The translations under genes were made by a program, and so were the position numbers. This document shows, piece after piece, positions 18,269 to 18,956 of a stretch of 64,000 bases of DNA (position 1 is its first letter; every line of letters begins with the position of its first letter). This stretch comes from Leucoraja ocellata (taxonomy: Eukaryota). The notes beneath the pieces were generated by a model. That model saw nothing but the letters and a program-made list of their open reading frames with translations. It made no database searches and was not told where the DNA came from. Where the stretch lies: contig JAWMAR010000061.1 in NCBI GenBank assembly GCA_036785375.1, positions 9,114,001 to 9,178,000 on the forward strand. The letters are read 5' to 3'.

Positions 18269-18956
18269 GGTTACACAGAAAAGGTGGAGAAACTCAGCGG
18301 GTGCAGCAGCATCTATGGAGCGAAGGAAATAGGCAACGTTTCGGGCCGAAACCCTTCTTCAGACTGATCAGGGGTGGGGGTGGGTGGGGACAAGAAAGGG
18401 AAAAGGAGGAGTAGCCAGAAGGCTGGAGGGTGGGAGGAGACAGCAGGGGAGCTGAGGAAGGGGAGGAGACAGCAAGGACTAACAGAATTGGGAGAAGTCG
18501 ATGTTCATGCCCCCGGGGTGCAGACTCCCCAAACGGAATATGAGGTGCTGTTCCTCCAATTTCCGGTGCTGCTCGCTGTGGCCATGGAGGAGACCCAGGA
18601 CAGAGAGGTCGGAGGCGGAGTGGGAGGGGGAGTTGAAGTGCTGAGCCACCGGGAGGTCAGCTAGGTTATTGCGGACCGAGCGGAGGTGTTCGGCGAAACG
18701 ATCGCCCAACCTCCGCTTGGTCTCACCGATATAGATCTGCTGACATCTAGAGCAGCGGACGCAATAGATGAGGTTGGAAGAGATGCAGGTAAACCTCTGT
18801 CGCACCTGGAACGATTGCTTGGGTCCCTGAACGGAGTTGAGGGGGGAGGTAAAGGGACAAGTGTTGCATCTCCTGCGGCCGCAAGGGAAAGTGCCCGGGG
18901 AGGGGGTGGACCGAGAGGGAAGGGAAGAATTGACAAGGGAGTTATGGAGGGAGCGG
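18269..18956 (-). mobile_element. 5'-truncated Penelope-like element with GIY-YIG endonuclease domain, flanked by a 14-bp duplication
   Basis: ORF 18479-18805 NLIYCVRCSRCQQIYIGETKRRLGDRFAEH...HFN...GMN; GTTTTTTAAACTAG at 18255-18268 and 18957-18970. Confidence 0.92.

Follow-up and report, generated by a model that had tools for sequence, protein, structure and literature searches.

Minimal hammerhead ribozymes have been described in Penelope-like elements (PLEs; Cervera and de la Pena, 2014, PMC4209133), with a consensus, given in Fig. [quoted passage not shown] Five of the motifs published there possess a helix I of 2 bp, each with two G-C pairs. With the paper's own descriptor about 9,000 hammerheads were counted in Xenopus and 4,000 in the coelacanth, and the 40 species of Fig. 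S3 include no cartilaginous fish. In Anolis, reverse transcription of the Poseidon element PAc begins at two internal positions that bracket the tail, and RNA left uncut serves as the substrate for insertion; cleavage by its hammerhead requires the PAc protein, and insertion in vitro does not need the hammerhead (Frangieh et al., 2024, PMC11167929). A CX2-5CxxC linker is a feature of the Neptune clade, common to Nematis and absent from Penelope and Poseidon (Craig et al., 2021, PMC8557442), while PLE promoters are placed within the pLTR (PMC2377424). Finally, retrozymes have been reported in one chondrichthyan (bioRxiv 10.64898/2026.07.22.740005). Apart from the retrozyme count of that 2026 preprint, I found no description of the motif in a PLE of a cartilaginous fish, in a literature search that stopped short of the preprint's supplements and of Repbase-type libraries.

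The locus described here lies in a window of 64,000 nucleotides from the skate Leucoraja ocellata (GCA_036785375.1, contig JAWMAR010000061.1), and its features are listed in Table 1. Position 0 is defined as the first base past the predicted cut (18334 in the window), so that C3 is at −28. Positions 18362–18335 of the minus strand read CTGAAGA A GGGT TTCG GCCC GAAA CG T T, then GCC, or, as RNA with its flanks, AGU CUGAAGA A GGGU UUCG GCCC GAAA C G U U GCC. The motif is sense to the GIY-YIG frame, as had been claimed, this frame lying on the same strand at 18479–18961 (E 0.001, 19.8 bits, below the Pfam cut-off of 22.6).

Table 1. Features of the element copy in the window (all on the minus strand).
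Feature	Position	Strand	Basis
Whole insertion, 688-bp 5′-truncated solo copy	18269..18956	-	2 mismatches to full-length L034
Target-site duplication, 5′ copy, 14 bp	18957..18970	-	sequence
Target-site duplication, 3′ copy, 14 bp	18255..18268	-	sequence
3′ end of PLE ORF: CX4CxxC linker and GIY-YIG endonuclease	18479..18956	-	profile match, sequence
Predicted cut to common 3′ end GTAACC, 66 nt; putative reverse-transcription start region	18269..18334	-	copy ends; analogy to PMC11167929
UCCUUC, +7 to +12 past the cut; predicted to pair with G8-A9-A-G10.1-G-G, masking the core	18322..18327	-	ViennaRNA folds, prediction only
Minimal type I hammerhead core: CUGAAGA, extra A, helix II GGGU/GCCC, loop UUCG, GAAA, palindromic ACGU	18335..18362	-	sequence; match to consensus of PMC4209133 Fig. 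S3
C3	18362	-	sequence
Helix II	18354-18351 with 18346-18343	-	sequence
GAAA	18342-18339	-	sequence
H17 = U; predicted cut between 18335 and 18334	18335	-	sequence
ATCAGT preceding the core: helix I 5′ strand (GU, 18364-18363) and initiator-like motif	18363..18368	-	kept in EN-anchored copies; 5′-end counts
Helix I 3′ strand (G1.1, C1.2); third pair an A-C mismatch	18333..18334	-	sequence and EN-anchored copies

The copy in the window stands alone, as a passive insertion. Among its surroundings, a short copy of the same leader, older and degenerate, is found 170 bp downstream (18138–18193, minus strand); the motif of that short copy at 18166–18192, the nearest on the same strand, has lost G12 and H17. 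An older 5′-truncated copy of a related sublineage (53467–53865, minus strand) shows 75% identity and has a motif from which 4 nt are deleted. Short copies in inverted, head-to-head pairs are located at 12752–12936 and 30496–30774, and among copies broken near the cut joints of this kind are seen repeatedly at the small palindromes in the leader (AACGTT, GC, TA and helix II). On the opposite strand, a U3 snoRNA gene (17875–18092, Rfam 170 bits) is situated 177 bp from the 3′ end of the element, and a tRNA-His(GTG) gene lies at 16544–16615 of the plus strand.

The original prediction described a hammerhead core at this position, and this description stands. CUGANGA, GAAA and an NUH site are all present, as are the extra nucleotide between 9 and 10.1, the G10.1-C11.1 pair and a helix II of at least 3 bp. 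Helix III is palindromic as proposed, but consists of ACGU (15.1–16.1) and not of AACGUU, since in the latter the core A14 would pair with H17. The extra A after A9, formerly listed as a caveat, is regular, because the published PLE consensus CUGANGAH includes it. The estimate of about 2 bp for helix I was accurate: a U-G or U-A pair is followed by G-C, and position 3 is mismatched. All five published helices of this length contain two G-C pairs, which makes the present one the weaker. Otherwise, the motif shares with the PLE hammerheads of PMC4209133 the CUGANGAH core with its extra nucleotide, G10.1-C11.1, GAAAC-GUH, the palindromic 15.2–16.2 without a loop III, the presence in both pLTRs and the many dispersed single copies; the nearest shapes in that paper are the Acropora Neptune and Crassostrea motifs. 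An Rfam search of 14000–26000 returned no hammerhead family at E≤10.

Chance can be ruled out, because the exact 31-mer occurs 25,986 times in the 3.44-Gb genome and the pattern CTGANGANGGGN6CCCGAAACGTH identifies 96,796 core-intact motifs in it, against 0 in the reversed control of each. The element has left the motif about 100,000 times in the genome; the count of at least 96,796 is about ten times the one published for Xenopus, under differing search rules. A descriptor search for minimal type I motifs had been suggested as a check, and a structure-enforcing descriptor gave 147 matches in 1.93 Mb of examined DNA, a sample enriched in the element through the choice of loci, against 1–2 in three shuffles. 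The bulged extra nucleotide together with a 4-bp helix II is found in 137 of these 147, and the same architecture with an ACGT helix III remnant in 146, the descriptor having required a palindrome without specifying ACGT. Within the window, 14 fuzzy copies of the motif were identified, and a loose pattern matched 19 times (three of these being one site) against 6.2 in shuffles, 19 being reached in 1 of 100. This is almost certainly a genuine PLE minimal hammerhead motif, and a further example of a class that is already known.

The family yielded 1947 candidate copies, and is young, the 40 that were scored having 99–100% identity. A full-length element, L034, consists of a 488-bp upstream pLTR, the tail, an ORF of 1230 aa encoding RT and EN, and a 3′ pLTR. 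The motif is present in both pLTRs, as it is in the L202–L203 array described below. In the upstream pLTR the cut precedes the ATG of the downstream ORF by 136 nt, while the other motif precedes the two 3′ ends by 66 or about 103 nt. Profile matches to RVT_1 (E 1.9e-6) and GIY-YIG (E 0.013) each fall slightly below the Pfam cut-off; among 7983 sequences scored in the same build, 1358 homologues at E≤1e-20 were obtained, with RT/GIY-YIG domains. The single ORF with RT and C-terminal GIY-YIG, the pLTRs arising from partial tandems, the inverted truncated partners and the 30–40 bp tail are those of EN+ PLEs, and are shared with the Neptune-clade elements of PMC8557442, as is the linker CGRRRCNTC at aa 1097 (CX4CxxC, which fits CX2-5CxxC between RT and EN). 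By this linker the element would be assigned to Neptune or Nematis, and not to Penelope/Poseidon, which in PMC8557442 are without it. A long proline-rich, repeat-bearing insert spans aa 190–520, the protein being about 330 aa longer than most homologues (about 900 aa).

A head-to-tail tandem array with a period of 3985 and three element motifs (L202–L203, G000:C1:8660000-8679999) is likely a source locus; its middle unit possesses an open frame of 1246 codons, the one such frame in the array. Source-type junctions are few, as exact tail-ORF junctions number 28 against 8,986 copies with 3′ UTR and motif. The element is a young, recently active PLE, with an intact source element elsewhere in the genome than the window.

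The motif was proposed to form the 3′ terminus of the element, which proved incorrect: 30 of the 30 best copies reach GTAACC, at +66 from the cut, and 7 of these extend by a further tail of about 37 nt to about +103. These ends are confirmed by the target duplications of short inserts, which abut them at +61 to +68 and +95 to +106 in 50 of 52 cases. The arrangement resembles that of PAc (PMC11167929), where two 3′ ends likewise frame the tail (37 nt apart in the skate) and the hammerhead lies just upstream of the region where reverse transcription starts. It differs from it in that the skate motif lies wholly in the 5′ UTR, the PAc cut being 26 nt after the ATG.

I next considered whether cut RNA serves as a template, in which case inserts should begin at 0. 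In a first sample, anchored downstream, 5 of 98 copies start at the cut, as do 5 of 171 unbiased family-A copies, and genome-wide 107 copies start exactly at 0 against 40 at +3, a position of equal chance weight. These counts, and the tandem arrays that put two motifs on one transcript, favour a strong form of the original prediction, in which self-cleavage excises monomers from tandem or read-through transcripts and thereby sets the ends of the RNA copied into DNA. I nevertheless regard this as highly improbable. The 3′ ends lie 66 or 103 nt past the cut. A further sample was aimed at copies with a break in the interval from −8 to +9 (96 distinct rows among the matches listed): a start at the cut is seen in 1 of its 43 plain truncations and in 4 of its 36 inverted arms, the 17 other rows being deletions or indels. 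When 20 of the 107 were sampled, 6 proved to be plain truncations, 8 were inversions or internal deletions at GCC microhomologies and 6 were inverted arms of other kinds, which leaves an excess of up to about 1.6-fold at most, against a +3 comparison set that is itself unfiltered. Any such excess would involve no more than about 1% of copies, and the clear footprint suggested by the 5 of 98 is unsupported by both later samples. A control at −4 (91 matches) was discarded, two recurring letter pairs dominating it. Since starts at the cut are at most slightly enriched, the inserted templates would almost all have been uncut RNA, as in PAc. RNA reads from relatives show no position in the pLTR at which many molecules begin or end, the lack of reads ending at the cut being a further likeness to PAc; in parallel with copy number they become fewer along the ORF from its 3′ to its 5′ end, and they show neither a start nor a cut. 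Of the proposal that this lineage uses the ribozyme to process its transcripts, the dimer-type architecture is thus retained, whereas processing finds no support in the 3′ ends, in the 5′ ends at the cut, or in the helices, helix II being without two-sided compensation and helix I weaker than the published 2-bp cases.

Conservation was analyzed in 43 copies found via the endonuclease and not via the motif, whose upstream UTRs have diverged. Four variants are common, namely U or C in loop II (26/17), U-G or U-A as fourth pair of helix II (21/17), U or C at H17 (12/25) and G or A at position 1.1 (28/14), and all four respect the hammerhead rules. The core is therefore kept across sublineages with changes at tolerated positions, in line with the predicted minimal type I hammerhead of dimer type. 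The helix II covariation looked for alongside core conservation was not observed: among the 43 copies in this genome there is no two-sided compensatory change in helix II, only one-sided changes that keep the pair, and a G>A that breaks helix II is present in 7 of 43, in 3 of which it adjoins deletions. A longer helix I was looked for in other families and not found, either among 237 relaxed matches or among 75 EN-anchored rows. The TCAGT before the core is kept in all sublineages, and the 66 nt downstream of the cut are conserved about as well as the core, so that conservation may reflect a promoter or protein-binding constraint.

The main rival explanation follows from this last point: the motif would be a dead relic, kept for its overlap with an internal promoter and an RNA element bound by the RT. 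Helix I is the weakest among the cases compared, no clear footprint exists at the cut, and hammerhead-less PLEs thrive, so that hammerheads may merely ride along (PMC8557442). The probability of helix II in the predicted ensembles, 0.001, points the same way. In the best ViennaRNA folds the core is paired to UCCUUC; a hammerhead-like fold is less stable than these by 5.5 kcal/mol (5.3 in family B), which suits a ribozyme that is normally off, and active dimer folds lie 12–18 kcal/mol above the best fold, these energies covering secondary structure only, with the tertiary core unscored by the program. The masking sequence is missing in one older subfamily, and folding z-scores of the window copy are unremarkable (0.36–1.13), both of which speak against the off-by-default reading given below. 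Against a relic, the four common sublineage changes all fall within the hammerhead rules, and the equally minimal Anolis motif cleaves with protein help (PMC11167929). I consider a relic unlikely, if worth serious attention. The reading that I favour, and hold to be somewhat more probable than not, is that of a pLTR minimal type I hammerhead of a young PLE, which would act as a slow cutter, normally off and dependent on a second hammerhead or on the element protein; a minority of transcripts would be cut after GUU, and the ends of the element would not be set by cutting.

The 5′ ends of short copies pile up 2–6 nt before the core, at TCAGT, and cluster at 18364–18365. The family-A set comprises 171 copies, after removal of one context-less row and of segmental duplicates. 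Of 84 copies reaching −30, 32 end at −30/−31 (0.19 per nt), against a background of 0.006–0.03 ends per nt between +5 and −27. A further 26 of the remaining 52 end at −32 to −34, where ends called at −33/−34 may include longer copies with diverged UTR. Family-B end calls (248 rows) are noisy through age, and are used as support only; an upstream pattern conjectured for that family matched 1 site and was set aside. The short inserts have their own target duplications of 8–18 bp (52 found). TCAGT resembles the initiator consensus, and the pile-up site is probably the transcription start. With a start at −31 the shortness of helix I, at 2 bp, would be accounted for, and the inserts of 95 and 133 nt would then be copies of the RNA leader. 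A G derived from the cap is found in 10 of 25 family-A cases against 7.0 expected (p 0.14) and in 22 of 50 for both families against 14.1 (p 0.012), and a G occurs in 7 of 18 untemplated gaps of short inserts. As the cap-G sign is weak, a block of reverse transcription at the C-rich tract is a possible alternative cause of the pile-up. A splice acceptor at CAG|T was also considered, and rejected for most copies: in 20 of 38 short inserts the element begins flush with its target duplication or inside it, and the other gaps measure 1–12 nt with no exon in common.

Taken together, these observations are compatible with the following sequence of events for the favoured, off-by-default ribozyme. 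Transcription would start 2–3 nt before C3 at the initiator-like TCAGT, limiting helix I to 2–3 bp, and the RNA would fold with its core paired to UCCUUC at +7 to +12. Reverse transcription would start internally at +66 or +103 and pass through the uncut motif, yielding long 5′-truncated copies such as that in the window, or short inserts of ~95/133 nt when the 5′ end of the RNA is reached. Occasional cleavage, with two motifs paired through ACGU, would strip the RNA of its first 31 nt together with the cap, or divide tandem transcripts, and may thus serve RNA regulation and not the definition of the element end.

An additional 20 tail-ORF junction loci were examined, of which 5 run on into the ORF, 1 ends in the flank and 14 are short back-joined tandem units of about 110–400 nt, with +123 to +260 joined to −197 to +16. 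They include L310 (G000:C24:9324000-9326500), with five identical joints, a period of 189 nt and complete motifs, and also L308–L326. It has been proposed (PMC4209133) that circular monomers made by the hammerhead are reverse-transcribed round and round into tandem copies. Full-length tandems do exist, and 14 of 20 loci are back-joined, one of them five times over with the same joint; yet none of the 14 joints falls at the predicted cut, their positions scattering and several showing 2–5 nt of microhomology, and I regard this route as highly improbable. Because no joint falls at the cut, the back-joined units point to template jumps, or to small circles made otherwise than by the cut. The sole cut-site joint seen, at L087/L148 in an older subfamily, is one event seen twice, in which sequence of the ORF start is joined exactly to the predicted cut.

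The back-joined arrays look like nascent non-LTR retrozymes. L310, with its consecutive 189-nt units carrying complete motifs and derived from a PLE pLTR, resembles those described by Li, Clavereau & Pollet (2026), and has the tandem arrangement that defines them in the preprint (bioRxiv 10.64898/2026.07.22.740005). Being 98–100% identical to the autonomous element, it would have arisen from the PLE directly. The window copy is unlike them: it is a solo 688-bp ORF fragment, a truncated copy of an autonomous element, where non-LTR retrozymes are non-coding tandem units, each with a complete motif. A joint reading is possible, and I advance it only tentatively: the transcript would start 3 nt before the core, the commonest repeat of the genome would be a strong-stop-like copy of the leader, the ribozyme would be a protein-gated switch that decaps the leader, and back-jumps of the RT around the leader would create tandem hammerhead arrays, that is, non-LTR retrozymes at birth from an active PLE.

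The site in itself is ordinary, since its motif class has already been described. The family, in contrast, gives statistical power on the role of PLE hammerheads: with copies that are nearly identical and number in the tens of thousands, with tandem arrays and with a source ORF that is intact, the starts and stops of reverse transcription become readable. The uncut templates and the sharp stop before the core would extend the in vitro result from Anolis (PMC11167929) to a second clade by genomic data, and the pile-up, read as above, puts forward a transcription start that can be tested. For the proposal that retrozymes originate from PLEs, the back-joined arrays, being young, provide a direct case.
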